Source of the DNA: an uncultured Alphaproteobacteria bacterium
Lineage (GTDB): Bacteria; Pseudomonadota; Alphaproteobacteria; CADEGL01
Reading direction: 5' to 3'
Length of the DNA stretch: 64,000 bases
Assembly (NCBI GenBank): GCA_902826885.1
Contig: CADEGL010000007.1
Span: 10,588 to 74,587 of the forward strand
The translations under genes were made by a program, and so were the position numbers. Positions 6,973-43,759 of this stretch are shown in pieces (positions within the stretch are counted from its first letter, which is position 1; each line of letters opens with the position of its first letter). The notes under the pieces were generated by a model. The model worked only from the letters and a program-made list of their open reading frames with translations. It made no database searches and had not been told where the DNA came from.

Positions 6973-7257
6973 ATTCCCCTCCATTGTTTCCAGATGTGCA
7001 TCCAACGCGTGGCGTTGCATTTTCCCCTCATCCCGTCCGCCGCGCGGCGCGTGGCCGCGAAGATCGCCGGATCATGTTGCCGTCTTGTGACGGCGGCCGG
7101 CGCGGCGGGCGGCTTTTGGCGCCACCCAGCGCCATGTCTATCGTCGCGCCGCGCCGGACGCAATCCGACGCTTTCGCGCCCGCGTAAAGCCGGCACTCCC
7201 GCCTCTCGAAAGCTGATGGTATCTTTGCGTTCCGGGTTCGATGGCCAGAGGTGCGCG

Positions 7258-21363: not shown

Positions 21364-21400
21364 TGTTCATCCCCCGAGTTGATCGCTCAGCTTGCCGACA

Positions 21401-22144: not shown

Positions 22145-22158
22145 CGGAAACGAATCGA

Positions 22159-22569
22159 TCAGCTGCGTTCCAGATTGGCCTGGATCGTATCAACCAGATC
22201 GCGCGTCCATTTGTTATAGAACGGGTGAATTATGCCCGTGCCGGCATTGGGCTGATATTTCATGTTGATGCTTCCGGCATAGACGACGCTGAAGTTCTCC
22301 TTTGAATACGTGATGTTGACGATCACGGTGTGCTTGTTGCGTACAACCAAGGTTGCGGTCACCGAATTTTCGGTGGGGCCCTTGGTGATCGTCCAGCTGT
22401 TCATGGCGGCGGCCGTCACGATCGCTTGCTTGACCTGATCGATCGTGAGTGGCTTCGCGACGAGTTGATTCTCGTAATTGATGATCGGCACGGCCTCGCG
22501 CGCTTGCGCGGCCGTGGTCAGGAAAACGGACACAATCAGGATCGTCAGGCTTCGCAACGCGACTTTCAC
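22159..22569 (-). CDS. Secreted hypothetical protein; low GC (~48%)
   Basis: It has a signal peptide (ILIVSVFLTTAAQA) and an AAGGAG RBS. Its GTG start overlaps the PPTase stop (GTGA). Confidence 0.55.
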   Translation of the reverse strand: MKVALRSLTILIVSVFLTTAAQAREAVPIINYENQLVAKPLTIDQVKQAIVTAAAMNSWTITKGPTENSVTATLVVRNKHTVIVNITYSKENFSVVYAGSINMKYQPNAGTGIIHPFYNKWTRDLVDTIQANLERS

Positions 22570-23210
22570 GTTTGTTCTCCTTTGCGTTCGATCATGGCGT
22601 CTTCCGCGCCGTCTGCATCTGTCACGGTGATGTGCAGATTGCGTACAGCCTCGGCAATTTGCGTAGTTTCCAGGCCTAGGATGGCGACCGATAAAAAAAC
22701 TCCGGGGTGGGGGACATGGTGATGAAGAAGCAGCGTCTCGCCGCCGAAGACCGTCGGCCAGGTACCTTCGCGCGGCCCGAGATGCGCCCGATCCGTGCCA
22801 TCGGCCACATGATCCAAGCCTCTTCCGTGGGCCTTGGCCAGCGCCTCGCGCAACGTCCAGATGCGGTAGAACTCATGTTCCGTCGTAGACCGCGCGATTT
22901 CCCGCGGCCCAAATGCCGCGTGGGCAATGCCGCGCCAATCGCGTCCCGGCCGCGCCACCTCCACATCCACGCCGATCGTCCCTGCCGTGCTCATCGCGCA
23001 GGCGAACCAATCACGGCTGTGCGAGAGGGAAATGGACGGTCCCGGCTCATCACCCTGAAACGCCATCGGTTGTCCAGACGGTAAATGCGCAATTCCCCAC
23101 GCGCCACGCGCCGTACCGGCAAGTTCGGCAAGTATTTTGCTTGCCATAGTCTTGGTTCGGCCGGTCGACCAAAAATGACCAGCCAGGGGTGGAAACCCTC
23201 CCTCTCTCAT
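22566..23210 (-). CDS. 4'-phosphopantetheinyl transferase (Sfp/EntD-type)
   Basis: It has PPTase motifs (ISLSHSRDWFACAMS, GVDVE, WTLREALAKAHG). The start is uncertain between 23210 and 23147. Confidence 0.7.
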   Translation of the reverse strand: MREGGFPPLAGHFWSTGRTKTMASKILAELAGTARGAWGIAHLPSGQPMAFQGDEPGPSISLSHSRDWFACAMSTAGTIGVDVEVARPGRDWRGIAHAAFGPREIARSTTEHEFYRIWTLREALAKAHGRGLDHVADGTDRAHLGPREGTWPTVFGGETLLLHHHVPHPGVFLSVAILGLETTQIAEAVRNLHITVTDADGAEDAMIERKGEQT

Positions 23211-23439
23211 AGTAAGTAGATTTACCTTGTACACTGAATGCGCAATGACAGTGGAAATCACAGGGGTTGGCCCGCGATATCTTTTGCAGGTTGAATCTAC
23301 TAGAACTGTTTCGCGTACGGGAAGACAGATATTACTACCGAATAGCATTGTCGATTCGGGGGAACGACAATCCTAATGCTTTGTCATTCGAAGATATTTC
23401 TTTCAAAGACTTTCCATTTTTCTCGATTTGGGGCGCGTT
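23211..23439. promoter_or_regulatory. AT-rich divergent promoter region between the PPTase operon (-) and the APE-like operon (+)
   Basis: This 229-bp region is ~45% GC. It contains the inverted repeat CCGAAT-N10-ATTCGG (23338-23359) and a related TTGTC(G/A)ATTCG half-site downstream. Confidence 0.35.
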
Positions 23440-24165
23440 ATGACACGCCTTAATCCCATTGCGGTGGCCCAGTGGGATGCGTGGTCACCCGGCCGCGAGA
23501 GCCGCGCAGCGTGGTCTGCTTGGGCCGGCGCTCCGGCATCAGGCCAGGATGGCCCGCCACCTTCGGCGCCAGCCGCATTGCGCCGCCGCGTCACACCCCT
23601 CGGGCAAAAGACGCTGGCCAGCGCCTTAGCCTGCGGAACCGCGGCGAATGGACATTATGTGTTCGCATCGCGGCACGGAGAGTACGACCGCACCGTTTCA
23701 ATCTTCGAAGCGCTGGCGTCCGGCGAGCAGCCTTCACCCGCCGAATTCAGCATGTCGGTCCATCATTCGCTGGCTGGATTGCTATCGGTCCATGCCGGCA
23801 ACCGTGGCGTCCACACCGCCGTCGCGGCGGGCGCCGACAGCTTCGGCTTTGGTTTTCTCGAGGCCGTTTCGCTTGTATCCGAGCGCCCGGCGGACCCCGT
23901 GCTCTTCGTCTATTACGACGAACCTTTGCCCTCGCCGTACGAGCGGTTTCGGGAAGGCGGCGAAACGTTGCCGTTGGTGCTGGCCTTGGAGCTTCGCAAA
24001 CCGTCGGAAGACGACCGCGCAATCACCTTCACGGCCACGCCGGCCGAGAACAAAACGCCATCACCGAGCGCGGCCGAAGATTTCCTTCATTTCTATCTCT
24101 CCGGGGCACCGCAAGCGGCCTCGGATGGCCAGCGCATGCACTGGCGGTGGCGGCGCGATGCATAA
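23440..24165 (+). CDS. Ketosynthase-like chain-length-factor protein (ApeC-like)
   Basis: It matches the KS N-terminal-domain-like small proteins found at the head of aryl-polyene clusters. A GGGG RBS is present. Confidence 0.6.
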   Translation: MTRLNPIAVAQWDAWSPGRESRAAWSAWAGAPASGQDGPPPSAPAALRRRVTPLGQKTLASALACGTAANGHYVFASRHGEYDRTVSIFEALASGEQPSPAEFSMSVHHSLAGLLSVHAGNRGVHTAVAAGADSFGFGFLEAVSLVSERPADPVLFVYYDEPLPSPYERFREGGETLPLVLALELRKPSEDDRAITFTATPAENKTPSPSAAEDFLHFYLSGAPQAASDGQRMHWRWRRDA

Positions 24166-24931
24166 GCTCCTCGATCGCGCTTGGCGCCTGATCGGCACCG
24201 GCTTCGCCTTCGCATTCATCTTCGCGGGCGGCGCGCTGGCCGCGATGACTTTGTTCCCGATGATCGCGTGCCTGACCCGGCCGGGCGAGGTACGTCATCG
24301 CGCCACGCGCGAGGCGATCCGCCGCATCTTCCAATTCTATATCGGCATGCTGCAGGTATTGGGACTGATCCGGCTCAAGGTCGACGGCACGCAAGCCTTG
24401 GCCGAAACCACGGGCCGCTTGGTCGTGGCCAATCATCCGACCATCTTGGATGTGGTTCTGTTGATCGCATTGCTGCCGCGCGTGCAGTGCATCGTGAAAG
24501 GCGAGTTGTGGCGCAGCCGCTATCTGGGTGGCACCATGCGCGCGGCCGGCTATATCCGCAACGATCTTGGCGCGAGCGAATTGCTGGCGGCTTGCAAAAA
24601 GGCCATCGACGAAGGCAACAACGTTCTGATCTTTCCCGAGGGCACGCGCACCAAGCCGAACACGCCGCTTCACATGCAGCGCGGTTTCGCCAATATCGCC
24701 CTTCTGTCCGGCGCGCGCATTCAACTGGTCACCATCACCTGCCAGCCCATCACGTTGACGAAGGGCGAGCCGTGGTGGCGGATTCCAGCGCGACGTCCGG
24801 ATTTCTCGGTCTCGGCCGGCGAATGCCTGGAGACCGCGGACCTATTGAACAACGAAGTCCGCTCCCTGGCCGCGCGCCATCTCGTGAAGCGGCTCGAAAC
24901 CTATTATGCGGAGCGCCTATCGCATGCCTGA
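24158..24931 (+). CDS. Lysophospholipid acyltransferase (PlsC/LPLAT family; ApeD-like)
   Basis: It has an HxxxxD-like motif (NHPTILD) and an FPEGTRT motif. It overlaps the upstream gene by 8 nt. Confidence 0.75.
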   Translation: MHKLLDRAWRLIGTGFAFAFIFAGGALAAMTLFPMIACLTRPGEVRHRATREAIRRIFQFYIGMLQVLGLIRLKVDGTQALAETTGRLVVANHPTILDVVLLIALLPRVQCIVKGELWRSRYLGGTMRAAGYIRNDLGASELLAACKKAIDEGNNVLIFPEGTRTKPNTPLHMQRGFANIALLSGARIQLVTITCQPITLTKGEPWWRIPARRPDFSVSAGECLETADLLNNEVRSLAARHLVKRLETYYAERLSHA

Positions 24932-25184
24932 TCTCGAACAGGAATTGAAGGCGCTGATCGTCAAGACGCTCCGCCTCGAGGAAGTCCGGCCCGAGGAGAT
25001 CGACAGCGGAGAAGCCTTGTTCGCAGGCGGTCTCAACCTCGATTCCATCGACGCCCTGGAATTGGGCGTGGCGGTCCGCAAGACTTACGGCGTCAAGATC
25101 GAGAATGTGACGGAAGAAGTACGCGCCCATTTTGCCTCGGTGCGCGCTCTCGCCGCCTTCATCCGTTCACAGCGCGGAGCATAG
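24924..25184 (+). CDS. Acyl carrier protein 1 (ApeE-like)
   Basis: It has an LDSIDALEL phosphopantetheine-attachment motif. It overlaps the upstream gene by 8 nt. Confidence 0.8.
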   Translation: MPDLEQELKALIVKTLRLEEVRPEEIDSGEALFAGGLNLDSIDALELGVAVRKTYGVKIENVTEEVRAHFASVRALAAFIRSQRGA

Positions 25185-25187
25185 GGA

Positions 25188-25436
25188 ATGCTGTCGCGCG
25201 ATGAGATCTACGAAAAGGTGTCGGCCTATCTGGTGGAAATGTTCGAGGTTCCACCCGAGAAGATCACGCCCGAGGCGCGGCTTTTCGCGGACCTGGATCT
25301 CGACAGCATCGACGCCATCGATCTGATCGTCCAACTGCAGAACCTCACGGGCCGCAAGATCAAGGCCGAGGAATTCAAGACCGTCCGGACCATCCAGGAC
25401 GTGGTCGACCGCGTCCATGGCCTCCTGGCCCCATAA
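25188..25436 (+). CDS. Acyl carrier protein 2 (ApeF-like)
   Basis: It has an LDLDSIDAIDL motif. It lies 3 nt after ACP1. Confidence 0.8.
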   Translation: MLSRDEIYEKVSAYLVEMFEVPPEKITPEARLFADLDLDSIDAIDLIVQLQNLTGRKIKAEEFKTVRTIQDVVDRVHGLLAP

Positions 25437-25455
25437 GGCGGGCAAATTTTGGCCC

Positions 25456-25998
25456 ATGGCTCTGGTCGCGCTTGGCGCGGCCTATCCGGTGGCCGTGTTC
25501 CTGGGGCAAGGTCGCGTCGGTCTGTGGGTGCCGATCCTCCTGGCCGCGCTTCTCCTCCTCGCCCGCCTATGTGCAGTGCCATCCGATGCGGCGCGGGCTT
25601 GGCGGGGTTTAACCGCGGCGGCCTTTATCCTGCTGCTCGCGCTAGCGCTGTATAATTCCGGCCTGGCCGCAAAGGCCTATCCGGTTCTCGTCAGCGCCAT
25701 GCTGGCCGCCGTGTTCGGCCTCTCCTTATTGCGGCCACCCAGCGTGATCGAGCGGCTGGCGATGCTCTCCGAACCCGATTTGCCGCCGGCGGGCCGGCGC
25801 TATTGCCGCCGCGTGACGGTCATGTGGCTGGGCTGGCTCGTCTTCAACGCGCTTCTGTCCGCGGCCTTGGCGTTGTGGGGTTCCGTCGAGGCGTGGACCC
25901 TATGGTGCAGCGTCCTGTCGTATCTGGCGATGGGCGCCTTGTTCCTGGGCGAATACGCCGTGCGCCGCCACCAGCGCCGCCGCTGGGCCGTCTCGTGA
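25456..25998 (+). CDS. Integral membrane protein (ApeG/COG4648-like)
   Basis: It has 4-5 transmembrane helices. The alternative start ATG 25417 would overlap ACP2 by 20 nt. Confidence 0.5.
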   Translation: MALVALGAAYPVAVFLGQGRVGLWVPILLAALLLLARLCAVPSDAARAWRGLTAAAFILLLALALYNSGLAAKAYPVLVSAMLAAVFGLSLLRPPSVIERLAMLSEPDLPPAGRRYCRRVTVMWLGWLVFNALLSAALALWGSVEAWTLWCSVLSYLAMGALFLGEYAVRRHQRRRWAVS

Positions 25999-27683
25999 CG
26001 CTCGCGCCACTCTCGGATCTTTTCGCCGCCGGCCGGCCGGGCGGCCTGCCGATCGCGCGCAGCGGTGGCCGCCTGATCGTCTTGTCCGACTTCCGAGCGG
26101 ATGTGGCCGCGAACGCCGCCCGCTTGCGTGCGACCGGCTGCAACCGCGGCCAGGTTATGGCCGAAGACAGCTATTGGGCCGCGGTCGGCATCTTCGCTCT
26201 GCTTCATGCCGGCGCGTCGGTGGTCATGCCGCAGCATGCCGGCCAGCCGAATGACGCCGATACGCTGCGCCTGGTCGACCGCCCGGCCGGCGCGGATGAC
26301 TTTGTCCTGCGCCCGGCCGAGACATCCGGCCCGTGCCAGTTGCCATCGCTCGACGCCACATCGTGCCGCTTCGCGTTGCATACCGCCGGCTCGACCGGCG
26401 CCGCCAAGCCCGTGATCAAGACCCTGCTTCAACTCGAGCGCGAAACGGCGATCCTCGATCCCCTGTTGGCGCGCTTCGCACGCGCGGGCGCGTGGGTGCA
26501 TGGTTCGGTGCCGCACTACCACCTCTATGGCCTGACCTTCAGATTGGCTTGGCCGCTGGCCTCCGGCCGGCCCTTCATGGGCGAGCAAAACCTGTTCTGG
26601 GAACAGGTTTTGAGCAGCGGGATCGGGAACGGCGTGCTCGTCACAAGCCCCGCGCATCTGACTCGGTTGGGCGGGCTGGCGCCGCTGGCGGCACCACCCG
26701 ATTTGATTTTGTCCGCCGGCGCGCCCTTGCCGGCATCGGCCGTCGAGGACGCCGCCACGATCTTGGGCAAGGCACCGGTCGAGATTTTCGGCAGCACCGA
26801 GACAGGCGTGATGGCCTGGCGCGAACGCGCGCGGCCGGGCAGCGGCTGGCGGCCGTTTCCCGAGATCCACGTGGAACGCCGTCCGGACGGACGCATCGCG
26901 ATCCGCTCACCGCTTCTGCCGGACGGCGGACCCTATTTCGGCGAGGACCTGATCGAGTTCGCGAACGACGGCACTTTCACGCTACACGGCCGCGCCGATA
27001 CCGTGGTGAAGATCGAAGGCAAGCGCACCAACCTGACGGAGCTTGAAGCCCTGCTCGGGGCGCTCGAGGAAGTTCAGGACGCGGCCGTCATTCCACTCGG
27101 CGACGAACCGATGCGCCTTGGTGCCGCCGTGGTGCCGAGCCAAGCCGGGCGCCGTCTTTTGTCGTCCGTCGGTGCCTTTCGTTTGGGCCGCCACTTGCGC
27201 AACGCCCTGGCCGCGCGGCTCGATCCCGCGCTGCTGCCGCGCCAATGGCGCTTTGTGCCCGCCTTGGGTGATTCACCCTTGGGCAAGCGCCGCCGCGCCG
27301 ATCTGGCCGGGCTGTTCGCGCCCGCCGACAGCCTGAAAAGCGGCCCGATACAGCCGGCCGTGCGCGCCACCAAGGTAGGCGCCGAAAAGGCCGAGCTCTT
27401 GCTGCACGTGCCTCGGGACTTGGCCTATTTCGACGGGCATTTCCCGGGCTTTCCGCTGGTGCCCGGCGTGACCTTGCTGGATTGGGCGGTGAGCCTGGGC
27501 AGCCAGGCCTTGGCGCTCGAACTGGATGCCGCGCAGCATTTTCAAGTCAAATTCCTGCACCCCGTTTACCCCGGCGATGATCTCGCGCTCTCGATAGCGC
27601 GCTCGAAAGACCGGCTGTCGTTCGAGTATCGCGTGGGCGAACGGGTCGTCAGCGTCGGCAAAATCGCGCTCGGTGCGCCATGA
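25995..27683 (+). CDS. AMP-dependent synthetase/ligase fused to a C-terminal FabA/FabZ-type hotdog dehydratase (ApeH plus ApeI-like fusion)
   Basis: It has an adenylation core (LHTAGSTGAAKP, FGSTETG). The C-terminal region has HFPGFPLVPGV, a FabZ-like motif. Its GTG start overlaps the upstream stop (GTGA). Confidence 0.7.
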   Translation: MTLAPLSDLFAAGRPGGLPIARSGGRLIVLSDFRADVAANAARLRATGCNRGQVMAEDSYWAAVGIFALLHAGASVVMPQHAGQPNDADTLRLVDRPAGADDFVLRPAETSGPCQLPSLDATSCRFALHTAGSTGAAKPVIKTLLQLERETAILDPLLARFARAGAWVHGSVPHYHLYGLTFRLAWPLASGRPFMGEQNLFWEQVLSSGIGNGVLVTSPAHLTRLGGLAPLAAPPDLILSAGAPLPASAVEDAATILGKAPVEIFGSTETGVMAWRERARPGSGWRPFPEIHVERRPDGRIAIRSPLLPDGGPYFGEDLIEFANDGTFTLHGRADTVVKIEGKRTNLTELEALLGALEEVQDAAVIPLGDEPMRLGAAVVPSQAGRRLLSSVGAFRLGRHLRNALAARLDPALLPRQWRFVPALGDSPLGKRRRADLAGLFAPADSLKSGPIQPAVRATKVGAEKAELLLHVPRDLAYFDGHFPGFPLVPGVTLLDWAVSLGSQALALELDAAQHFQVKFLHPVYPGDDLALSIARSKDRLSFEYRVGERVVSVGKIALGAP

Positions 27684-29365
27684 CCGACCGGCTGCGCCTC
27701 TGCGCGGTGGTTCCGACCCATAACCATTGGCAGGCCCTTGGCGGCGTGCTCGACGAGCTGTGCAACCGCGATATCCCCGTCTTCCTGATCGACGACGGCA
27801 GCGATCCCGATGCCTCCGCCCGGATCGCCGGGATGGCGGCGGAGCGCACCGGCATCGAGCTGCATCGCTTCGCGGCCAATCGCGGCAAGGGCGCGGCCGT
27901 CCTGGCCGGCTTTCAGATGGCAAGCGCGGCCGGCTTTACCCACGCGATCCAGATTGATGCCGACGGTCAGCATGATTTGAACGCCTTGCCGCGACTGATC
28001 GCGCTGGCCCATCGGCATCCGGATACGCTCGTCAGCGGCATCGCCACCTACGACGCCTCGGTGCCGCTTGGCCGCAAGATCGGACGCTGGATCACCCATG
28101 TCTGGGTCTGGATCGAAACTCTCTCGTTCCGGGTTCGGGACAGCATGTGCGGCTTTCGGATCTATCCCTTGGCCGCCGTTTCCGCCCTGTCCGCCTCCGG
28201 CGCGCGGATCGGCACGCGGATGGATTTCGATACGGAAATTCTCGTGCGTTTGGTTTGGACGGGCGTGCCCCTGCTGGAGGTGCCGGTGGGCGTCATGTAT
28301 CCGCCCGGCAACCGGTCCAACTTCCGCATGGTAGCGGACAATTGGCGCATCTCGAAAATGCACACCCGTCTGGCCTTTGGGATGGTTGCGAATCTGCGCC
28401 GCGTGCTGGCCCACCCGCCGCGCGCGCCCGGACAGGGTCCCCATTGGTCATGGCTGATGGAACGCGGCGCCTATTGGGGTCTGCGCATCAGCGCGGCGTA
28501 TCTCCGCCTGTTCGGGCGGCGCGGCAGCATCATCGCGCTCTCGCCCATCATTTTTTATTTCTATCTATCGGGCGGTGTGCAGCGCCGCGCCTCGCGGGAT
28601 TTTCTGACGCGCGCCTTCGCCGCGTCCGGGATCAGGCGCACGCCCGGATTCGTCGATGGTTTCCGGCACTTCATGGCTTTCGCCGAACGGACCATCGATG
28701 CGTTCGCCGCTTGGACCGGGCGCATGCCCACGGGCGCGTTCGCCTACGGCGACGCGGCCGCACTGCATGGCGCGATCGCCGATCCGCGCGGCGCGCTGTT
28801 CATCGTGTCCCATCTGGGCAATATCGACATGACGCGCGCGCTTTTGGACGAGCCCACGCGACGGCGCCTCACGATCTTGGTTCATGATCGCCACGCGCGG
28901 AATTACGGGCGCATCCTGCGCGAGTTCGGCGCCGATGCCGAACGGAACACGATTCAAGTGACGGAAGTGGGCGCGGAGACCGCGGTCGCGCTGAAGGAGC
29001 GGGTCGAGGCCGGGTCCTGGATCGTCCTGGCCGGCGACCGGACACCCGTGAAAGGCCAAGGGCGCACCAGCCTGGCGCCGTTCATGGGCGCTCCCGCGCC
29101 TTTTCCCCAAGGCCCCTACATCATGGCCGCGCTTCTGGAGTGTCCAGTCTATTTGCTGTTCTGCCTCAAAATCGGAGGCCGGTACGTGCTCAACGCGGAG
29201 CGCTTCGCCGAGCGGATCGAACTGCCGCGCGGCGAACGCGCGGCGCGGCTCGACGCCTATGCGACGCGCTATGCCGCGCGGCTGGAGCACCACGCGCTGC
29301 GCGCGCCGTTCCAATGGTACAATTTCTTCGACTTCTGGGCCCCGCCACGGAACGACGCGCCATGA
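27680..29365 (+). CDS. Glycosyltransferase family 2 fused to an LpxL/HtrB-like lipid acyltransferase domain (ApeJ-like plus acyltransferase)
   Basis: The N-terminal GT-A fold has a DxD-like IDDGSD motif. The C-terminal ~300 aa resemble lauroyl/Kdo2-lipid IVA acyltransferases. The start overlaps the upstream stop (ATGA). Confidence 0.65.
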   Translation: MTDRLRLCAVVPTHNHWQALGGVLDELCNRDIPVFLIDDGSDPDASARIAGMAAERTGIELHRFAANRGKGAAVLAGFQMASAAGFTHAIQIDADGQHDLNALPRLIALAHRHPDTLVSGIATYDASVPLGRKIGRWITHVWVWIETLSFRVRDSMCGFRIYPLAAVSALSASGARIGTRMDFDTEILVRLVWTGVPLLEVPVGVMYPPGNRSNFRMVADNWRISKMHTRLAFGMVANLRRVLAHPPRAPGQGPHWSWLMERGAYWGLRISAAYLRLFGRRGSIIALSPIIFYFYLSGGVQRRASRDFLTRAFAASGIRRTPGFVDGFRHFMAFAERTIDAFAAWTGRMPTGAFAYGDAAALHGAIADPRGALFIVSHLGNIDMTRALLDEPTRRRLTILVHDRHARNYGRILREFGADAERNTIQVTEVGAETAVALKERVEAGSWIVLAGDRTPVKGQGRTSLAPFMGAPAPFPQGPYIMAALLECPVYLLFCLKIGGRYVLNAERFAERIELPRGERAARLDAYATRYAARLEHHALRAPFQWYNFFDFWAPPRNDAP

Positions 29366-29769
29366 TCTCCGCCAAGATCGCCATTACGCCGCAATTTTAC
29401 GACATCGACCCGATGCAGGTGGTCTGGCACGGCAATTACGCGCGGTTTTTCGAGATCGCGCGCTGTGCTCTTCTGGATCGAATCGGCTATGGCTACGAGG
29501 CCATGGCCGCCTCGGGCTATGCCTGGCCCATCGTCGATCTGCGCATCCGCTATGCCCGCCCCGTCAAGCTGTTCCAAGGCTTGGAGGTCGAGGCCAATCT
29601 GGTGGCCTATGAAAACTATCTGCGCATCGCCTATCGCTGCCGGGACGCCCAAAGCGGCGAAACCCTGACCAAGGGACAGACCACCCAGGTCGCCGTGTCC
29701 TTGCAGAGCGGCGAAACCTGTCTCGAATCGCCCGAGGTGTTTCTCGAAAAAGTCAGACGGCTCTTGTGA
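29362..29769 (+). CDS. Hotdog-fold acyl-CoA/acyl-ACP thioesterase (4HBT/YbgC-like; ApeK-like)
   Basis: YDIDPMQVVWHGNYARFFE is a 4HBT signature. The start overlaps the upstream stop (ATGA). Confidence 0.75.
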   Translation: MISAKIAITPQFYDIDPMQVVWHGNYARFFEIARCALLDRIGYGYEAMAASGYAWPIVDLRIRYARPVKLFQGLEVEANLVAYENYLRIAYRCRDAQSGETLTKGQTTQVAVSLQSGETCLESPEVFLEKVRRLL

Positions 29770-30395
29770 AACGTCTTCTCTCCATCCTCCTGGCCGCGCT
29801 CCTATCAGCCGCCGCGCCTGCTTGGGCCGCCGACGGAACCGTCACGGCCGGCATCCTGAAGCCCGGTGAAGCGCTCCGCGGCAAATTCCTGCAGGAGCGC
29901 AGGCTGCAGGGCTTCGACGCGCCGCTCAAGACCGAGGGCAGCTACCTGCTCTCGCCCGCCTCGGGCTTGCTGTGGCGCGCGGAAAAGCCCTTCGCCGTCG
30001 TGACCATGATCAACGGCGACGGGCTGGTTCAACTGGCGAACGGGCAAGAGACCCTGCGCCTGCCCGCCGCCCGCCTGCCCTTCCTGTCCCGCCTGTTCGC
30101 CGTCTTCGAGGGGGCCTTGCTTGGCGATTGGCGCAAGCTGTCCGACCAGTTCACCGTGGCGCAGTCCGGCAATGAGCGCGATTGGACCTTGGCGCTGACG
30201 CCGCTGAAAAACGGCGATGCCGAGGTCATGCCAATCTCGCGCATCAACGTTTCGGGCGGACGGTTCGTGCAGAAGGTGGAGATCGTCCGCGTCAACGGCG
30301 ATTCCGACCGTATCACCTTCAGCGACCAGACCGTGGTGCAAGACAAGCCCACGCCGGACGAGATTCAGCTCTTCTCCAAGGTGAAAACCCCGTGA
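29766..30395 (+). CDS. LolA-like outer-membrane lipoprotein carrier protein (ApeL-like)
   Basis: It has a signal peptide and is LolA-sized at 209 aa. Its GTG start overlaps the upstream stop (GTGA). Confidence 0.6.
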   Translation: MKRLLSILLAALLSAAAPAWAADGTVTAGILKPGEALRGKFLQERRLQGFDAPLKTEGSYLLSPASGLLWRAEKPFAVVTMINGDGLVQLANGQETLRLPAARLPFLSRLFAVFEGALLGDWRKLSDQFTVAQSGNERDWTLALTPLKNGDAEVMPISRINVSGGRFVQKVEIVRVNGDSDRITFSDQTVVQDKPTPDEIQLFSKVKTP

Positions 30396-32701
30396 GACGC
30401 ACGGCCGCGCTGATCTGGCTGGCGCTGGTCTGCCTGTCCGCCGGCTATGTCGGCTATCAGGCCGTGAACGGCATCGCCCTGCGCACCGATCTGACCGCGC
30501 TTCTGCCGCGCGACGAACGCGACCCCATCTTGCAGAAGGTCAACGATGCGGTGTCTTCGTCCCTGTCGCGCCGCGCGGTCTTCCTGGTCGGCCATGCCGA
30601 ACGCGCCAAGGCGCGCCAAGGCGCTGCGTCCGTCAGCCAGGCGCTGGCTGCCTCGGGAGCGTTCTCCATCGAACGCGACGCGTTGAACGCGGAGCGCCTG
30701 AAGCGGGTGGGCGCGCTCTACTGGCCGCACCGGGGTGCGCTTTTGTCCAACGCCGACCGCGCGGCACTTCAGGCCGATCAGGGCGAGGCCGTTGCCACCC
30801 GCGCCTTGTCGCAGGCTTACGGCTTTGTCGGGCTGTCGGATTCGCGGTTGCTGGTCGAGGACCCCTTTCTCCTTTTCCCGGCTTTCATGTCGCACCTGCC
30901 CTTTCCGATGTCCCGCCTGTCGGTCGACGACGGCATGCTGTCGGCCCACGCACAAGGCATGACCTGGATCCTGGTCACGGGGCTCGTCGGCGGCGACCCA
31001 TACGATCTCGCCGTGCAGGAAGCCGCCGTCGCGGCCTACGACACCGCCGTCGCCGCCGCACAAGCGCAGGCGCCGGGTCTTGCGGTCAAGCATCTGGGCG
31101 CGGTGTTCTTCGCGTTCCAGGCGGCGCGCGCCAGTTTGGACGAAGCGCGCATCCTTGCATTTACCGCGGCCGCGGGAACGATTCTCTTGGTCGTCTGCGT
31201 CTTCCGGCGCCTGTCCGTTCTCTGGCTCAACCTCCTCGCGGTCGGAACCGGATTGTTGGTCGGATTGGCCGCCAGCTTGGCCATCTTCGGCGAGATCCAT
31301 GTCGCCTCGCTCCTGTTCGGCACCAGCCTGATCGGTATCGCCGTGGATTACGCACTGCAGTACTCGGTCGGCTTTTTCGACGGCGATGCGCCTGATCCTG
31401 CGCGCCGGTTGAGCCATGTCCTGTCCGGCATCAGCCTGGGTCTGCTTTGCACCTTGATCGGCTATATCGCGCTCATGCTGGCCCCCTTTCCCGGCCTGCG
31501 GCAAATCGCCGTCTTTTCCGCCATTGGATTGGGCGCGGCCTTCGCCAGCGTCGTGCTGTGGTTTCCGCGGCTCGACCGCACGCCCATGCTGCACCATGGA
31601 CGGCCGGTGCTTGGCGCCATGGCCGCGCTTTGGCGGGTCTGGGAAACCCCCGTCGGCCGCCGCGCGGTTGCGGCGATTCTGGTTGCCTTGGCCATCGCGG
31701 GGACGGCGGGGCTCACGCGGCTGCATGCCAACGACGATGTGCGTTCCATGCAATCGCTGTCCAAGCCGCTCTTGCGCGAACAAGAGGAAGTGCGCGACAT
31801 CATCGGCGCAACCGTGTCGCCGCAGTTCATCCTCGTGCGCGCCGGCAGCGACGACGCGGCGTTACGCACGGAAGAGGAGCTGGCCGTGCGGCTCGCCCCG
31901 CTGGTGACGGACGGCGCCTTGTCCGGCTTTCAGACACCGGCCGCCTTCGTTCCCTCGCCCGAACGCCAGGCGGAGAACCGGAGACTGATCCGCGATCGGT
32001 TGGAGGCGCCGTTTCTTGCCCGTCAGCGCGCGGCCCTGGGTCTGGCGCCCGCGCCGCCGGGCGTCGAGCGCGACGATACCGTCCTGACGCTGGACGATGC
32101 GCTCGGCAGCGGCGCGGTCCCGTTCTTGAGCCAGCTGATCATCGCACCCGGTGTCCATGTCGTGATGCTGGAAGGGTTGACCGACGCCGACGCGCTGCGC
32201 GCCACGCTTGCGTCCTTGCCCGGCGTGCGTCTCGTAGACCCGACCGGGGATTTCAGCGCCCTGTTGTCCAAATACCGCCATCAAGCGCTGTGGCAATTGG
32301 CGCTGACCGCGGCGCTCGTCGCGCCGGTCTTGCTATGGCGCTATGGCTGGCGCCGCGGCGTCCTGGTGCTCGTGCCTTCCGTCGCGGCGGTGGTTCTGAC
32401 ACCCGCGCTCCTCGCACTGATCGGACAAGCCATGACGTTCTTCCACGCCATGGCGCTCGTCTTGGTTCTGGCGATCGGGGTCGATTACGCCGTGTTCTGC
32501 GCGGAAAGCAGCCACGCGCGCCGGCCGCTGACCATGCTGGCGATCCTCTTGGCGGCGATGACCACCACGCTTTCGTTCGGCCTTCTGGCCTTCAGCCGCG
32601 CCCATGCCGTCCATGTCTTCGGCTTGACCGTGTTGATCGGGATCACCTTAGCGTTCTTGCTCGCTCCCTTGGCGGCGGCCGGCAGGGCACGGAAGCCGTG
32701 A
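30392..32701 (+). CDS. MMPL/RND-superfamily exporter (ApeM-like)
   Basis: It is ~770 aa with 12 transmembrane segments and two periplasmic loops. The start overlaps the upstream stop (GTGA). Confidence 0.75.
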   Translation: MRRTAALIWLALVCLSAGYVGYQAVNGIALRTDLTALLPRDERDPILQKVNDAVSSSLSRRAVFLVGHAERAKARQGAASVSQALAASGAFSIERDALNAERLKRVGALYWPHRGALLSNADRAALQADQGEAVATRALSQAYGFVGLSDSRLLVEDPFLLFPAFMSHLPFPMSRLSVDDGMLSAHAQGMTWILVTGLVGGDPYDLAVQEAAVAAYDTAVAAAQAQAPGLAVKHLGAVFFAFQAARASLDEARILAFTAAAGTILLVVCVFRRLSVLWLNLLAVGTGLLVGLAASLAIFGEIHVASLLFGTSLIGIAVDYALQYSVGFFDGDAPDPARRLSHVLSGISLGLLCTLIGYIALMLAPFPGLRQIAVFSAIGLGAAFASVVLWFPRLDRTPMLHHGRPVLGAMAALWRVWETPVGRRAVAAILVALAIAGTAGLTRLHANDDVRSMQSLSKPLLREQEEVRDIIGATVSPQFILVRAGSDDAALRTEEELAVRLAPLVTDGALSGFQTPAAFVPSPERQAENRRLIRDRLEAPFLARQRAALGLAPAPPGVERDDTVLTLDDALGSGAVPFLSQLIIAPGVHVVMLEGLTDADALRATLASLPGVRLVDPTGDFSALLSKYRHQALWQLALTAALVAPVLLWRYGWRRGVLVLVPSVAAVVLTPALLALIGQAMTFFHAMALVLVLAIGVDYAVFCAESSHARRPLTMLAILLAAMTTTLSFGLLAFSRAHAVHVFGLTVLIGITLAFLLAPLAAAGRARKP

Positions 32702-33291
32702 GCACTCCGCTTCGCCCGCTCGGACTACTCGCGTCCGCGCTTATGCTGCTGCAAGCCTGCGCCAGCAGCCCGCCGCCGGCCGGCGATCAGGCGATGATCG
32801 CGCCAGGCCACGTCTTGACCCTGCCCGCGCCGGCCGAATATGGCCGCCGCGCCGAGGTGGCGCAGCTCGTCACCGTCCATTGGCGGGATCAGACATTCGG
32901 CTTCGAAGCGCGTATCTCGATCACACCGCAACAGGTGGTCATCGCGGGAATCGACGGTATGGGACGGCGCGCCATGACCATCACCTGGAACGATTCCGGC
33001 GTCAGCCAGGAAGCCGCCCCATGGCTGCCCGAGGCGATGCAGCCCGGCCCGGTGCTGGCGGACATTGTCGTGCTTTATTGGCCCGAAGACGCCGTGCGCC
33101 GCGCGCTTGCCGCGGCCGGCGCCACGTTGACGGCCGATGCCACGCGCCGCACGGTCCTGATTGACGGCAAGCCGGTGCTTGAAGCCGAATACCAGTTCGT
33201 GCCCGGCGTCGCATGGCCGCACAAGGTTCGATATCGTAATCTCGCCTGGGGATATTCGATGGAAATCGATTCCGTCGAATCGAACGGATAG
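32698..33291 (+). CDS. DUF3261-family lipoprotein (ApeN-like)
   Basis: It has a lipobox (LLQACAS). The start overlaps the upstream stop (GTGA). Confidence 0.6.
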   Translation: MSTPLRPLGLLASALMLLQACASSPPPAGDQAMIAPGHVLTLPAPAEYGRRAEVAQLVTVHWRDQTFGFEARISITPQQVVIAGIDGMGRRAMTITWNDSGVSQEAAPWLPEAMQPGPVLADIVVLYWPEDAVRRALAAAGATLTADATRRTVLIDGKPVLEAEYQFVPGVAWPHKVRYRNLAWGYSMEIDSVESNG

Positions 33292-33293
33292 CG

Positions 33294-34493
33294 ATGGGCG
33301 ATCAACTCGGCATTCCGGCGATGGGCATCATTGCGCCCATCGGATCGAACAAGGACGCAACGGCACAGGCCTTGTGGGCGGGCGGGCGCGCTGGCCTGTC
33401 CTTGCGCGCCGACATCGCCGTCGGGCGAAAGGTGTATGTCGGCGCCGTGGCGGACGAATTTCCCTCGATACCGGCGGGGCTCGAAGGTTTCGCTTCCCGC
33501 AACAACCGCATGATGCTGGCTGCGCTCGCGCAGATCGCCGACGCGGTGCGCGCCGCCGTCGCGCGCTACGGCTGCGCGCGCGTGGCCGTCATTCTCGGCA
33601 CCAGCACGGGCGGGCTGGCCGAAGGCGAGCATGCTTACGGGCAGCGTAAGACCACCGGCGTCTGGCCCAACAGCTACGCCTATACGCTGCAAGAGGTCGG
33701 CGGTCTGGCGGAATGCGCGGCGCAAGCCTTCGGTATTACCGGCCCGGCCTATACGGTCGCGACCGCCTGTTCTTCCAGCGCCAAGGTCTTCGCCTCGGCC
33801 CGGCGCCTGATCCGCGCGGGTTTTTGCGACGCGGCGGTGGTCGGCGGCTGCGACACGCTCTGCGGCACCACGGTGAACGGGTTCGGCGCGCTGGAATCTT
33901 TGTCGGCGGGCATCTGCAATCCATTCAGCGCCAACCGCGACGGGCTCAATATCGGCGAGGCCGCGGCCGCGTTCCTGCTGGTGCCCGAGGATGCGCCGGT
34001 CCAGTTGCTCGGCATCGGCGAAAGCTCGGACGCCTACCATATCAGCGCACCCGATCCGCAAGGGATCGGCGCCGCCGCCGCGATGACCAGAGCTTTGGAA
34101 GACGCCGGAATCGAGCCCAGCGACATCGGCTATATCAACCTGCACGGCACGGCCACGCGACTGAACGACGCGATGGAAGCCCGCGCCGTCGATTCCGTCT
34201 TCGGCCTCGAAACGCCGTGCAGCTCGACCAAGGCCATGACCGGCCACACGCTGGGCGCCGCAGGCGCGTGCGAGGCCGCGTTTCTATGGCTTGCGCTTCA
34301 TCCCCAATATGGCGACGGGCGCGTGCCGCCTCATCTGTGGGACGGCGTGCGCGACGACGATATCCCCTCTCTTGCTCTGGCGCCGAAGGGATTGCGCCTG
34401 CCGCCGACCGAACGGGCCGCGATGCTGAGCAATTCCTTCGCCTTCGGCGGCAGCAATTGCTCTCTCATCTTGGCGCGAGGTTTCCCGGCATGA
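33294..34493 (+). CDS. Beta-ketoacyl-ACP synthase (ApeO-like)
   Basis: It has an active-site Cys (TACSSS), catalytic His residues (HGTAT, GHTLGAAG) and an FAFGGSNCSLIL motif. Confidence 0.85.
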   Translation: MGDQLGIPAMGIIAPIGSNKDATAQALWAGGRAGLSLRADIAVGRKVYVGAVADEFPSIPAGLEGFASRNNRMMLAALAQIADAVRAAVARYGCARVAVILGTSTGGLAEGEHAYGQRKTTGVWPNSYAYTLQEVGGLAECAAQAFGITGPAYTVATACSSSAKVFASARRLIRAGFCDAAVVGGCDTLCGTTVNGFGALESLSAGICNPFSANRDGLNIGEAAAAFLLVPEDAPVQLLGIGESSDAYHISAPDPQGIGAAAAMTRALEDAGIEPSDIGYINLHGTATRLNDAMEARAVDSVFGLETPCSSTKAMTGHTLGAAGACEAAFLWLALHPQYGDGRVPPHLWDGVRDDDIPSLALAPKGLRLPPTERAAMLSNSFAFGGSNCSLILARGFPA

Positions 34494-34969
34494 GGCCCTG
34501 CGCCTATCCGATCGAATGGCTGGTGCCGCACGCGCGGCCCATGATCCTGATCGACGAGGTGCTGTATTGGGACGGCGCCTTGTTGAAGACAGGGCTGACG
34601 GTCCGGGCCGGCATGCCATTCTTCCGCGCCGGCCAGGGCGTGCCCGCCCATGTGGCGATCGAGTTCATGGCGCAAAGCTGTGGCGCCTTCATCGGCATGG
34701 AGGCGATGGAGAAGGGTGAGGATGTGCGCCTTGGCTTCCTGCTCGGCACGCGGAATTTCGCGTCGCAGATCCCCTGGTTCGCCGAGAAGGCGCGCCTGAC
34801 CATCGCGGCCTCCATGTCGTTCCGCGACGCGGAAGTCGGCGTTTTCGAATGCGCCGTCGATTGCGATGACGCACCGGCCGCGCAGGCATCCCTGACGCTG
34901 CACCGCCCGGCCGATGCCGGCAAGGCGTTTAATGCCATGCGCACGAGCGCGACCGGAGCCGCGCCATGA
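34490..34969 (+). CDS. 3-hydroxyacyl-ACP dehydratase, hotdog fold (ApeP-like)
   Basis: It has a hotdog fold with HVAIEFMAQS. The start overlaps the upstream stop (ATGA). Confidence 0.65.
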   Translation: MRPCAYPIEWLVPHARPMILIDEVLYWDGALLKTGLTVRAGMPFFRAGQGVPAHVAIEFMAQSCGAFIGMEAMEKGEDVRLGFLLGTRNFASQIPWFAEKARLTIAASMSFRDAEVGVFECAVDCDDAPAAQASLTLHRPADAGKAFNAMRTSATGAAP

Positions 34970-35694
34970 CCGCGCGCAGCATCTTGGTCACCGGCGCCAG
35001 CAAAGGCATCGGCCGCGCGATCGCCGTGCGCTTGGCGAAAGACGGGTTCGCCATCGTGGTCCACTACGGCCGCGATGCGGACGCGGCCGCGGACACGGCA
35101 CGGCAGATCGCCGGGATGGGCGGATCGGCGCGCACAATCGGTTTCGACATCGCCGACCGCGCCGTAACCAAAGCCGCGCTGGAAGCGGACATGGAGGCGC
35201 ACGGCGTCTATTGGGGCGTCGTGCTCAATGCCGGCATCGCACGCGACGCGGCCTTTCCCGCCATGGAAGACGGCGAGTGGGATGCCGTCTTGGGTACCAA
35301 TCTGGACGGATTCTACAACGTGCTGCGCCCCGTGGTCATGCCCATGGTATCCGCGCGACGCGGCGGGCGAATCGTCACGCTTTCATCGGTGTCTGGACTG
35401 ACCGGCAACCGCGGCCAGGTCAATTACAGTGCCGCCAAGGCTGGGATCATCGGCGCGACCAAGGCGCTGGCGGTCGAGCTGGCCAAGCGCGAGATCACCG
35501 TGAACTGCGTGGCGCCCGGCCTCATCCAAACCCAGATGATCGAAGGCGTACCGCTTGAGGAGGTGCAGAAGCTGATCCCGATGCGGCGGATCGGGCGGCC
35601 CGAGGATGTGGCCGGCGCGGTCGGTTTCCTTTGCTCCGACGATGCCGCCTACGTCACCCGGCAGGTCATCGCCGTTAACGGAGGCATGGTGTGA
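34966..35694 (+). CDS. fabG: 3-oxoacyl-ACP reductase (FabG-like; ApeQ-like)
   Basis: It has TGASKGIGRAIA, NAG and YSAAK motifs. The start overlaps the upstream stop (ATGA). Confidence 0.85.
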   Translation: MTARSILVTGASKGIGRAIAVRLAKDGFAIVVHYGRDADAAADTARQIAGMGGSARTIGFDIADRAVTKAALEADMEAHGVYWGVVLNAGIARDAAFPAMEDGEWDAVLGTNLDGFYNVLRPVVMPMVSARRGGRIVTLSSVSGLTGNRGQVNYSAAKAGIIGATKALAVELAKREITVNCVAPGLIQTQMIEGVPLEEVQKLIPMRRIGRPEDVAGAVGFLCSDDAAYVTRQVIAVNGGMV

Positions 35695-36920
35695 CGCGGC
35701 GCGTGGTCGTCACCGGCATGGGCGGAATCACGGCGCTGGGCCAAAGCTGGGCCGAGATCCGCACACCGATGCTGCGGGGCAAAACGGCCGTGCGCTATAT
35801 GCCCGAATGGGAACAGTACGAAGGCATCAGCACCCGCCTCGCGGCTCCCATCGCGGGCTTCTCGGTCGATGCGCTTTATCCGCGCAAGAAGACGCGCACC
35901 ATGGGGCCGGTGTCGAAGATGGCCGTGCGGGCAACCGACCTGGCGCTGGAAGATGCGGGCCTACGGCAGGACCCCGTGATCGGCGGCGGCCGGACTTGCG
36001 TTGCGTATGGATCGTCTTTCGGCAGTCCCGATCCCGTTCTAGGATTCGCCGAACTAAAAATGCACGGCACGTCCCGCAAGCTCAACGCGACGAGCTATGT
36101 GCAGATGATGAGCCACACGGCGGCGGTCAATATCGGGCTGTTCTTCGGCGTCACCGGCCGCATCATCCCGACCTCCAGCGCCTGCACCTCCGGCAGCCAA
36201 GGTATCGGCTACGCCTACGAAGCAATCCGCTGGGGACGCGCCGACCTGGCCATCGCCGGAGGGGCGGAAGAGATCGATATCACCCAATCCGCCGTGTTCG
36301 ACACGCTGTTCGCCACCAGCACGCGCAACGACCGGCCCGAAACCACGCCGCGCCCCTTTGACCGCGATCGGGACGGCCTGGTCATCGGCGAGGGTGCCGC
36401 GACATTGATCCTGGAGGAGCGCGAACGCGCCCTTGCCCGCGGGGCGACGATCTATGCCGAGATCGCGGGCTTCGCGTGTAATTCGGATGGCAACCACATC
36501 ACGCAGCCCCAGGCAGGCACCATGGCCAGCGCATTACGCCTGGCGCTCGAGGATGCCAGCCTGGATGCGGAAGCGATCGGCTTTATCAGCGGCCACGGCA
36601 CGGCGACGGACACGGGCGACATGGCTGAGTCCAAAGCCACGCACGACGTATTGGGGGCGCGCGTGCCGATCCATTCGCTGAAATCGTATCTCGGCCACAC
36701 GCTCGGCGCCTGTGGCGCCATCGAGACGTGGCTGGGTATCGAAATGATGCGGGAAGGTCACTTTGCCGCGACCGCCAACTTGGAAAATCCCGACCCGCAA
36801 TGCGCGGACCTGGATCATGTCATGGGTGCGCCGCGCCGCGCCGATGTCGAATACATGATTTGTAACAACTTCGCGTTTGGCGGGATCAATACCTCGATCG
36901 TCGTCCGCAACGCCCGATGA
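35691..36920 (+). CDS. Beta-ketoacyl-ACP synthase II-like (ApeR-like)
   Basis: It has an active-site Cys (SSACTSG), HGTAT and GHTLGAxG. Its GTG start overlaps the upstream stop (GTGA). Confidence 0.85.
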   Translation: MTRRVVVTGMGGITALGQSWAEIRTPMLRGKTAVRYMPEWEQYEGISTRLAAPIAGFSVDALYPRKKTRTMGPVSKMAVRATDLALEDAGLRQDPVIGGGRTCVAYGSSFGSPDPVLGFAELKMHGTSRKLNATSYVQMMSHTAAVNIGLFFGVTGRIIPTSSACTSGSQGIGYAYEAIRWGRADLAIAGGAEEIDITQSAVFDTLFATSTRNDRPETTPRPFDRDRDGLVIGEGAATLILEERERALARGATIYAEIAGFACNSDGNHITQPQAGTMASALRLALEDASLDAEAIGFISGHGTATDTGDMAESKATHDVLGARVPIHSLKSYLGHTLGACGAIETWLGIEMMREGHFAATANLENPDPQCADLDHVMGAPRRADVEYMICNNFAFGGINTSIVVRNAR

Positions 36921-36944
36921 CTGGGCCCAGCCCATCGAAGCTGC

Positions 36945-36970
36945 GCGCGATTTCTAATTTCGCGCTTTTC
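36945..36970 (+). terminator. Rho-independent terminator closing the 16-gene operon
   Basis: A GCGCGA-9nt-TCGCGC hairpin is followed by TTTTC. Confidence 0.55.
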
Positions 36971-37100: not shown

Positions 37101-37187
37101 TGGTGCCCCTGGCCGGACTCGAACCAGCACGATGTCGCCACCAACAGATTTTGAGTCTGCCGCGTCTACCAATTCCGCCACAGGGGC
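37101..37187 (-). tRNA. tRNA-Leu (anticodon CAA), class II with a long variable arm
   Basis: Manual fold gives a perfect 7-bp acceptor stem GCCCCTG/CAGGGGC, a GTTCGAGTC T-loop, the anticodon loop CTCAAAA and an encoded CCA. Confidence 0.85.
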
Positions 37188-43605: not shown

Positions 43606-43759
43606 CGGCACCCTTGCGTTACAAGGGCTTCCCGGCCGCTCGCACGGCCGCGAAGCGCTCGGGAAATATGACGGCGGGCCGGGGAAAACACAACGGGTTG
43701 GGTGTTCCCGGAAGTTTCGCCCATCCGTCACACGGGCGTCATGTTCGCTTGTCCCACCG

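Follow-up and report, generated by a model that had tools for sequence, protein, structure and literature searches.

Whether a run of lipid biosynthesis and export genes in an uncultured alphaproteobacterium encodes an aryl-polyene (APE) pigment or a different exported lipid is the question raised by the locus at 23440-36920 of the window, by which we mean the whole 64,000-nucleotide stretch of DNA analysed here (contig CADEGL010000007.1 of assembly GCA_902826885.1, positions 10,588 to 74,587 of the forward strand). Of the families of biosynthetic gene clusters (BGCs) known from Gram-negative bacteria, APE clusters are the most abundant, and a survey has catalogued them in Alphaproteobacteria (PMC8776678); in that survey, on Acetobacteraceae, none of the predicted metabolites of the family had been purified, and no alphaproteobacterial APE product appears to have been chemically characterised. 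As judged from its genes, the locus is very probably an APE lipid (APEL) cluster of the E. coli/Xenorhabdus type in the chromosome of the uncultured alphaproteobacterium. The original prediction, an earlier note on the same DNA, had proposed an operon of aryl-polyene type with the gene order ApeC to ApeR, and this was borne out by BLASTP against E. coli, by Pfam, by the Protein Data Bank (PDB) and by the gene order in other genomes.

Collinearity with the ape locus of E. coli

On the + strand, 15 intact, consecutive and co-directional open reading frames (ORFs) form an unbroken chain between 23440 and 36920. The chain was built from the + strand ORFs, each start near the preceding stop being examined, and its members are listed below with their predicted functions, lengths in amino acids (aa) and identity to the corresponding E. 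coli protein.

ApeC, 23440-24165, + strand: chain-length-factor (CLF) half-ketosynthase, 241 aa; PF13723 (Ketoacyl-synt_2), E=3.7e-50; 32% identity
ApeD, 24158-24931, + strand: lysophospholipid acyltransferase (LPLAT), 257 aa; PF01553, E=2.7e-17; HX4D motif HPTILD; 39% identity, aligned from residue 1
ApeE, 24924-25184, + strand: acyl carrier protein (ACP), 86 aa, DSID motif; PRK09184, PP-binding; 51% identity
ApeF, 25188-25436, + strand: ACP, 82 aa, DSID motif; PRK05350, PP-binding; 61% identity
ApeG, 25417-25998, + strand: integral membrane protein, 193 aa; alternative start at 25456; 43% identity over the C-terminal 102 aa, at equal total length
ApeH-ApeI fusion (ApeHI), 25995-27683, + strand: 562 aa; PF00501 AMP-binding and PF22818 ApeI-like; 35% identity to ApeH (residues 6-441) and 31% to ApeI (residues 461-559)
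ApeJ, 27680-29365, + strand: GT2 glycosyltransferase joined to a lipid-A-type acyltransferase, 561 aa; PF00535, E=1.4e-17; 42% identity over the full length
ApeK, 29362-29769, + strand: hotdog (4HBT/YbgC-type) thioesterase, 135 aa; PF13279 (4HBT_2); 45% identity
ApeL, 29766-30395, + strand: LolA-like periplasmic carrier, 209 aa, with signal peptide; PF19574 LolA_3; 26% identity
ApeM, 30392-32701, + strand: RND/MMPL-type transporter, 769 aa, by homology to E. coli ApeM, whose annotation is MMPL family transporter; 32% identity over 781 aa
ApeN, 32698-33291, + strand: DUF3261 (LolB-like) lipoprotein, 197 aa, lipobox LQAC; PF11659, E=3.8e-30; 29% identity
ApeO, 33294-34493, + strand: elongating ketosynthase (KS), 399 aa; PRK09185; Cys-His-His triad present; 48% identity
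ApeP, 34490-34969, + strand: hotdog dehydratase subunit, 159 aa; PF22817 ApeP-like; 27% identity
ApeQ, 34966-35694, + strand: FabG2-type ketoreductase of the short-chain dehydrogenase/reductase class, 242 aa; TIGR01831 fabG_rel; 64% identity
ApeR, 35691-36920, + strand: initiating KS, 409 aa; PRK09116; Cys-His-His triad present; 59% identity

When the window proteins were compared by BLASTP with the 18 products of one RefSeq-annotated E. coli ape locus (L005), all 15 + strand proteins matched ApeC to ApeR one-to-one at 26-64% identity, and the expected synteny with the E. coli cluster was found to be strictly collinear. The order ApeC-D-E-F-G-H-I-J-K-L-M-N-O-P-Q-R is complete, with ApeH and ApeI fused, and every core gene by which an ape BGC is recognised (bioRxiv 10.1101/2020.12.19.423268) is present, namely apeO, apeR, apeC, apeE, apeF, apeI, apeP, apeQ and apeM. 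Gene by gene, the originally predicted order agrees with both the ORF chain and Pfam. The predicted count of 16 genes had instead to be lowered to 15, which is also the number of items in the prediction's own list, because ApeH and ApeI constitute a single 562-aa ORF. At the DNA level, the ApeO-ApeR segment matched 826 of 5426 complete E. coli genomes by blastn at about 65% identity, and among the matches listed all the alignments lay on the ape locus and none on fabF or fabB.

The systems of E. coli CFT073 (apeA-apeR, c1204-c1186) and Xenorhabdus doucetiae, both APEL makers, thus share with the window the same ApeC-ApeR set and order and an ApeA homologue. The likeness extends to the KS:CLF pair, the two-subunit dehydratase logic and the two ACPs, to the attachment pair formed by the LPLAT and the GT2/acyltransferase, and to the export set of LolA-like, RND and DUF3261 proteins. 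Many junctions between genes likewise overlap in these systems, in which the cluster equally holds no starter-unit gene and no regulator. Unlike in E. coli and Xenorhabdus, ApeH and ApeI are here one protein, and the proteins are no more than 26-64% identical; further differences concern the genes on the opposite strand and are treated with them.

Ketosynthases, carrier proteins and reductive enzymes

Profile searches with Pfam and NCBIfam models placed the cluster proteins in families of APE type, the family-specific Pfam models ApeI-like, ApeP-like, Ketoacyl-synt_2, DUF3261 and LolA_3 being matched, and each enzyme of the cluster retains its catalytic motifs. By Pfam, ApeO and ApeR are both full KS proteins. 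With NCBIfam models, ApeO reached 510 bits for PRK09185 (cut-off 407) vs. 212 for fabF (cut-off 493.75), and ApeR 650 bits for PRK09116 (cut-off 470) vs. 338 for fabF. ApeE and ApeF exceeded the cut-offs of PRK09184 (82.9 bits vs. 70) and PRK05350 (125 vs. 65), respectively, and both fell short of that of acyl_carrier (26 and 49 bits vs. 70.45). The ketoreductase ApeQ scored 379 bits for TIGR01831 fabG_rel (cut-off 338.85), while the fabZ equivalog model failed with scores of 24-26 against a cut-off of 155.

Comparison with the PDB gave a concordant picture, in which the scores to APE enzymes were roughly twice those to FabF or FabG. ApeO matched X. doucetiae ApeO (6QSP_A) with 348 bits (E=8e-103; FabF about 157), ApeR matched 4EWG with 536 bits and 7F27 with 478 (FabF about 245), and ApeQ matched 7CZC/7CAW with about 330 bits, the best other 3-oxoacyl-ACP reductase chains reaching about 190-200. 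The structures of the Acinetobacter baumannii enzymes, ApeO-ApeC (7F28, among the top matches of both ApeO and ApeC), ApeR (7F27) and ApeQ (7CZC/7CAW), were the top or second-best PDB matches; this organism is a gammaproteobacterium, and the comparison concerns its individual enzymes, not its cluster layout. The best match of ApeC was X. doucetiae ApeC (6QSP_B). PF13723 is its sole domain, the C-terminal KS domain and the HGT motif being absent, as is characteristic of the truncated CLF of the ape family, devoid of catalytic residues. For ApeP, which carries the FabZ-type IE-MAQ helix, the best match was X. doucetiae ApeP (6QSR_B). The KS, ketoreductase and ACP sequences therefore group with APE-specific clades as far as NCBIfam cut-offs and PDB bit scores can assign them, not by a formal tree.

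Starter loading, attachment and export

The fused ApeHI protein combines an aryl-acid adenylating and ACP-loading domain with an ApeI-type hotdog dehydratase domain that bears a GHFP motif (the FabZ-type histidine motif). The core motifs of the adenylation domain are intact (TAGSTGAAK, GSTE, GRADTVVKIEG, GK), and its weak matches are all to aryl-acid ligases, i.e., those for 4-coumarate, 4-chlorobenzoate, benzoate and 3-hydroxybenzoate. The C-terminal domain found its best PDB match in an uncharacterised protein (3ESI, E=2e-12) and also matched X. doucetiae ApeI (6QSR_A).

The genes that set the APEL subtype apart, for attachment (ApeD and a two-domain ApeJ) and for export (ApeG, ApeL, ApeM and ApeN), are all present, with HX4D and DxD motifs in place. 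In ApeJ the C-terminal half matched acyltransferase models, and the motifs DDGS/DAD and HLGNID were found. Weak NCBIfam matches were recorded for ApeL (flexirubin LolA2) and for ApeM (HpnN and HAE3).

Gene junctions and transcript end

The GC content of the window is about 65%, and the window is therefore rich in shadow ORFs. An ORF at 24181-24948 (+ strand, 255 aa), considered as the LPLAT gene, was rejected, being an Arg/His/Gly-rich junk translation with no Pfam match and a wrong pattern of codon-position GC (0.79/0.60/0.48); the true ApeD frame is a different one, that of 24158-24931. A 427-aa ORF at 23648-24931 (+ strand) is likewise real only from 24158 on, its upstream part overlapping ApeC in another frame. 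The shadow ORFs over ApeC and ApeD show that ORF length alone is misleading at 65% GC.

With the best-supported starts, nine of the 14 junctions are 4-nucleotide ATGA/GTGA overlaps and two more, ApeC/D and ApeD/E, are 8-nucleotide overlaps. Spacers of 3 and 2 nucleotides separate ApeE from ApeF and ApeN from ApeO, respectively, and the ApeF/G junction is ambiguous, either an overlap of 20 nucleotides or a gap of 19. The earlier statement that every junction overlaps by 1-8 nucleotides thus holds for 11 of the 14 (4-8 nucleotides) and fails for the two spacers. The starts of ApeD, ApeE, ApeHI and ApeR are backed by E. coli alignments beginning within the first seven residues. The tight overlaps of starts and stops suggest that the 15 + strand genes may be co-translated.

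The single terminator proposed behind ApeR fared less well.

Candidate intrinsic terminator, 36945-36970, + strand: GC stem of 6 bp, loop of 9 nucleotides and UUUU; weak evidence

The hairpin at 36945-36965 and the following UUUU do exist in the sequence and in the fold, but the 65 nucleotides around the hairpin folded no better than their own shuffles (z = -0.57), and a terminator scan did not report it. A consensus scan for sigma-70 sites and terminators yielded nothing useful either after ApeR or in the divergent region upstream of ApeC. The Rfam scan of the window returned tRNA alone, and therefore no riboswitch or known leader.

The divergent minus-strand operon

Contrary to the original prediction, 23440 is not where the cluster begins. 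A divergent operon on the - strand, at 21401-23147 and possibly from 20728, also belongs to it.

4'-Phosphopantetheinyl transferase (PPTase), AcpT-like (Sfp-type), 22566-23147, - strand: 193 aa; Pfam ACPS, E=6.3e-10
ApeA homologue, 22159-22569, - strand: 136 aa, Sec signal peptide, no lipobox; identified by BLASTP to E. coli ApeA
Class I methyltransferase dependent on S-adenosylmethionine, 21401-22144, - strand: 247 aa; Pfam Methyltransf_11/25, E=1.8e-23
Predicted lipoprotein, 20728-21363, - strand: 211 aa, lipobox VSAC; no Pfam or NCBIfam match
Divergent intergenic (promoter) region, 23148-23439, no strand: 292 bp, GC 0.46

We assign the first three of these genes to the cluster on sequence and neighbourhood, because the ApeA homologue and the methyltransferase are kept in two related contigs (L003 and L004), and the PPTase and the methyltransferase recur at other ape loci. 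In E. coli and Xenorhabdus the arrangement is different, as the window has ApeA, methyltransferase and PPTase in an opposite-strand operon rather than co-directional and upstream.

The ORF of the PPTase is open to 23348, the likely start read from the sequence being the ATG at 23147. Its best NCBIfam match was AcpT (E=1.9e-13, below the model cut-off), the E. coli PPTase reported as activator of ApeE/F homologues; E. coli depends on this enzyme from an unlinked gene, whereas here an AcpT-like PPTase is part of the cluster. A divergent PPTase homologue lies directly upstream of ApeC in six further loci (L008, L014, L016, L020, L022 and L026); genomes with this arrangement include those of Dongia, Thalassospira and Terasakiella, besides several metagenome-assembled genomes (MAGs) of Alphaproteobacteria.

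The ApeA homologue aligns with E. coli ApeA over 128 aa at 30% identity (E=8.5e-14) and shares 85% identity with its counterpart in L003; the missing lipobox is a further difference from the E. coli/Xenorhabdus system. The methyltransferase is unrelated to the 352-aa ApeB of E. coli, to which BLASTP gave no match at E<0.01, so that no methyltransferase of ApeB type was found. Its counterpart in L003 is 71% identical, and homologues of 44-46% identity lie inside the ape loci of Pseudomonas and of an Acetobacteraceae MAG; the nearest models include carboxyl O-methyltransferases such as BioC and Mtf2, and also UbiE. The enzyme is likely the methylase of the head group, i.e., a functional counterpart of ApeB but not a homologue.

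The 211-aa lipoprotein occupies the same position in L003 and L004, at 68% identity. Its family counts about 31 proteins, has no Pfam or NCBIfam model and was seen only in alphaproteobacterial MAGs and metagenomes. The idea of a new ape accessory protein was dropped, since the three homologue neighbourhoods inspected, in other genomes, are unrelated to ape genes; the roughly 30 homologues elsewhere are hypothetical proteins in varied gene neighbourhoods. Membership is therefore doubtful, and the lipoprotein probably stands outside the cluster.

As a separate observation, the divergent genes (20728-23147) have a GC content of 0.55-0.62 and a third-position GC (GC3) of 0.65-0.76, below those of the rest of the window and of the + strand ape genes (GC mostly 0.65-0.68, GC3 about 0.8), which could reflect a different origin or a weaker codon bias.

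The AT-rich divergent region of 292 bp probably holds both promoters, and no sigma-70 consensus site was found in 23148-23439. Within it, at 23347-23371, lies an inverted repeat with perfectly matching arms of 7 bp (ATTGTCG-N11-CGACAAT), some 70-90 bp upstream of where ApeC starts. The repeat and other blocks (e.g., GTAAGTA.ATTTAC and TACTAGAAC) are identical in L003, while the region overall is 66% identical. The repeat may serve an unlinked regulator as operator or as promoter element.

Starter unit and alternative products

The original prediction took the absence of a starter gene from the cluster to mean that the head group is unknown. It was right that no such gene is present, as no ammonia-lyase or chorismatase was found in the Pfam-scanned ORFs of the window (all except those at 53215-63853 and two around 9319-11300), but the conclusion was over-read: clusters of the E. 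coli/Xenorhabdus type have no starter-unit gene as a norm, and 4-hydroxybenzoate (4-HBA) comes from UbiC (PMC8253772). The missing gene is normal because E. coli takes 4-HBA from ubiquinone metabolism. A COQ7 gene is present in the window at 42243-43043 and points to ubiquinone synthesis and, by extension, to a supply of 4-HBA; by analogy, the aryl starter would most likely be 4-HBA drawn from the ubiquinone pathway. The upstream methyltransferase, which the original prediction had missed, also bears on the head group.

The alternative that survives best is that an APE-like cluster uses a non-aryl or otherwise different starter, the product being an exported conjugated or hydroxy fatty-acyl lipid. 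It is suggested by the lack of a starter-unit gene, by the modest identity of the ApeH domain to E. coli ApeH (35%) and by its score of 92.8 bits against the 4-coumarate ligase model (cut-off 334.7), and by the Xenorhabdus machinery, which also produces a conjugated C26:5 fatty acid of non-aryl type on ApeF. However, the E. coli and Xenorhabdus clusters lack a starter gene just as well, the weak matches of the adenylation domain are to aryl-acid ligases without exception, a methyltransferase of head-group type is linked here and in other ape loci, and the full ApeA-R set is kept. On balance we regard a non-aryl product as improbable.

Lower still we place a pigment cluster of xanthomonadin type (brominated, primed with 3-hydroxybenzoate, 3-HBA) or of flexirubin type (dialkylresorcinol ester), which is very improbable even though the loci with fused ApeH-ApeI include Lysobacter, Arenimonas and Stenotrophomonas, and ApeL and ApeQ gave sub-threshold matches to the flexirubin models LolA2 and FlxB. 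No halogenase, chorismatase/XanB2-like, ammonia-lyase or DarA/DarB-type Pfam match occurred in the scanned ORFs. The linked XanB2-type 3-/4-HBA synthase and halogenase of a xanthomonadin cluster hence gave no Pfam match there, no reference sequences having been compared directly, and of the flexirubin hallmarks (DarA/DarB, tyrosine ammonia-lyase) no ammonia-lyase domain was found among the same ORFs, while the DarB model (cut-off 550) gave only 23 bits. ApeD and the two-domain ApeJ, which represent the route to a phospholipid-sugar anchor and are 39-42% identical to the E. coli proteins, also speak against both pigment types. That the genes are spare housekeeping paralogues of type II fatty acid synthesis (FabF/FabB/FabG/FabZ/AcpP) with no specialised product has next to no probability, for although the KS, ketoreductase, dehydratase and ACP share superfamilies with those enzymes, the paralogue-specific models pass where fabF, acyl_carrier and fabZ fail, the twofold PDB gaps agree, in accord with the KS/CLF/ACP assignment of the original prediction, and in the conserved ape order these genes are linked to those for CLF, LPLAT, GT2, LolA-like, RND and DUF3261 proteins.

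Several points nonetheless weigh against the preferred reading as an APEL cluster. The product is deduced from the genes, none having been observed, and the starter acid, the polyene length, the site of methylation and the anchor sugar are not readable from sequence. ApeL, ApeN and ApeP are only 26-29% identical to functionally tested proteins; ApeM and ApeG had no match in Pfam (for ApeM, at E<0.01) and are identified from 32-43% identity to E. coli proteins. The substrate of the methyltransferase is uncertain because its nearest models include BioC, Mtf2 and UbiE and it has no homology to ApeB, and translational coupling and terminator are both read from the sequence alone.

A variant of the APEL reading deserves mention. 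The window and the related contigs L003 and L004 represent a sub-lineage with fused ApeHI, a methyltransferase other than ApeB, a non-lipoprotein ApeA and a PPTase of its own, and it is conceivable, if rather unlikely, that such clusters make an APE lipid with a novel decoration of the head group or a novel anchor, e.g., O-methylation or a methyl ester instead of ring C-methylation, with the conserved inverted repeat perhaps acting as operator of an unlinked regulator.

Proposed route to the aryl-polyene lipid

A route to the APE lipid can be outlined by homology to the characterised systems, with gene roles taken from the literature (PMC8253772; bioRxiv 10.1101/2020.12.19.423268; PMC8358021). 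The AcpT-like PPTase would turn ApeE and ApeF into their holo forms, and the ApeH domain would adenylate an aromatic acid, most likely 4-HBA, and load it directly onto ApeE without a CoA intermediate. The first condensation with malonyl-ACP would be carried out by ApeR and the later ones by the ApeO:ApeC heterodimer (KS:CLF), in which ApeC is the presumably catalytically dead half-KS. After each condensation the beta-keto group would be reduced by ApeQ, and dehydration by the hotdog heterodimer of the ApeI domain with ApeP would let the conjugated polyene grow.

The class I methyltransferase, a small enzyme, may then methylate the head group. ApeD and the two-domain ApeJ would build and acylate a phosphoglycerol-sugar anchor and, together with the thioesterase ApeK, attach the polyene to this glycerophospholipid-sugar moiety, after which ApeM, ApeG, ApeL and ApeN, with the ApeA homologue, may carry the lipid to the outer membrane. 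Pigments of this type in the outer membrane are expected to protect against reactive oxygen.

Distribution in other genomes

A scan of genome contigs with the single ApeHI protein sequence found no relative. The scan with an alignment of 24 ApeHI homologues instead recovered the fused AMP-binding and ApeI-like architecture in at least 581 genomic loci, and the fusion was common to all of the best 120 database matches. These loci span alpha-, beta- and gammaproteobacteria; the 80 that were retrieved include Azospirillum, Dongia, Magnetospirillum, Acetobacteraceae, Thalassospira, Paraburkholderia, Caballeronia, Burkholderia, Pseudomonas, Lysobacter, Arenimonas, Methylomonas and Chromobacterium, and a tblastn matrix showed the ApeC-to-ApeR order in nearly all of these 80 (out of at least 581). 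The recurrence of the fusion implies that loading of the starter and dehydration are carried out physically close to each other.

Among Alphaproteobacteria, the fused-ApeHI clusters of Azospirillum, Dongia, Thalassospira, Terasakiella and Acetobacteraceae MAGs, which are known only in silico, have the same fusion and the same order, and in several of them, as in the window, a divergent PPTase is the gene next upstream of ApeC. In the named genomes ApeHI is at most about 50% identical to that of the window, and Azospirillum differs from it in that ApeJ is displaced downstream, on the opposite strand, while the upstream side carries an IclR regulator. The nearest relative is a Logan contig (L003, with L004), 64-87% identical across the cluster and provided with the same minus-strand trio of ApeA, methyltransferase and 211-aa lipoprotein; unlike the window, L003 lacks the PPTase.

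In three loci (L020, L025 and L062), fused-ApeHI ape genes sit on contigs that binning assigned to Solirubrobacterales (Actinomycetota), Treponema and Spirochaetota; either the binning is wrong or APE clusters also occur outside Proteobacteria and Bacteroidota.

The cluster is hence a known system that had been recognised correctly, and the ApeH-ApeI fusion, the PPTase linked to the cluster and the methyltransferase unrelated to ApeB are each found in many genomes besides this one. What it adds is an APE cluster that is intact and, with a PPTase of its own, self-sufficient, from an uncultured lineage of Alphaproteobacteria; this carries little weight beyond annotation and opens no new question. 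Its compact 19-gene layout and dedicated PPTase would make it a handy construct for heterologous expression.

Flanking genes

The genes on either side of the cluster are ordinary chromosomal genes, and a tRNA gene follows ApeR. The ZapE protein of the host is 87% identical to proteins from alphaproteobacterial MAGs and about 60% identical to those of Microvirga and Bosea.

tRNA-Leu(CAA), 37101-37187, - strand: 180 nucleotides downstream of where ApeR stops, oriented with the 3' end towards the cluster

The possibility that the cluster is a genomic island at this tRNA found no support, as the window contains no second copy of the tRNA 3' end and no integrase adjoins it. No meaningful long direct repeats were found in the window either, and there is therefore no evidence of an integrated island.

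Downstream of the tRNA, a 560-aa ORF at 37276-38958 (- strand) has no family match and probably starts internally, at the signal-peptide-like MRRAYPRTLRLASGAFAALLAASLAGAAA. It overlaps the ORF of an AlgX-like SGNH hydrolase at 38609-39718 (+ strand) by 350 nucleotides on the opposite strand, and one of the two ORF starts must therefore be wrong. Elsewhere in the window, an HNH endonuclease at 43054-43929 (- strand) adjoins COQ7 and DsbB, a PA14-domain protein is encoded at 3581-4249 (- strand), and a 692-aa protein at 6172-8250 (+ strand) joins a C-terminal TauD/TfdA dioxygenase domain to a long N-terminal half without family assignment.

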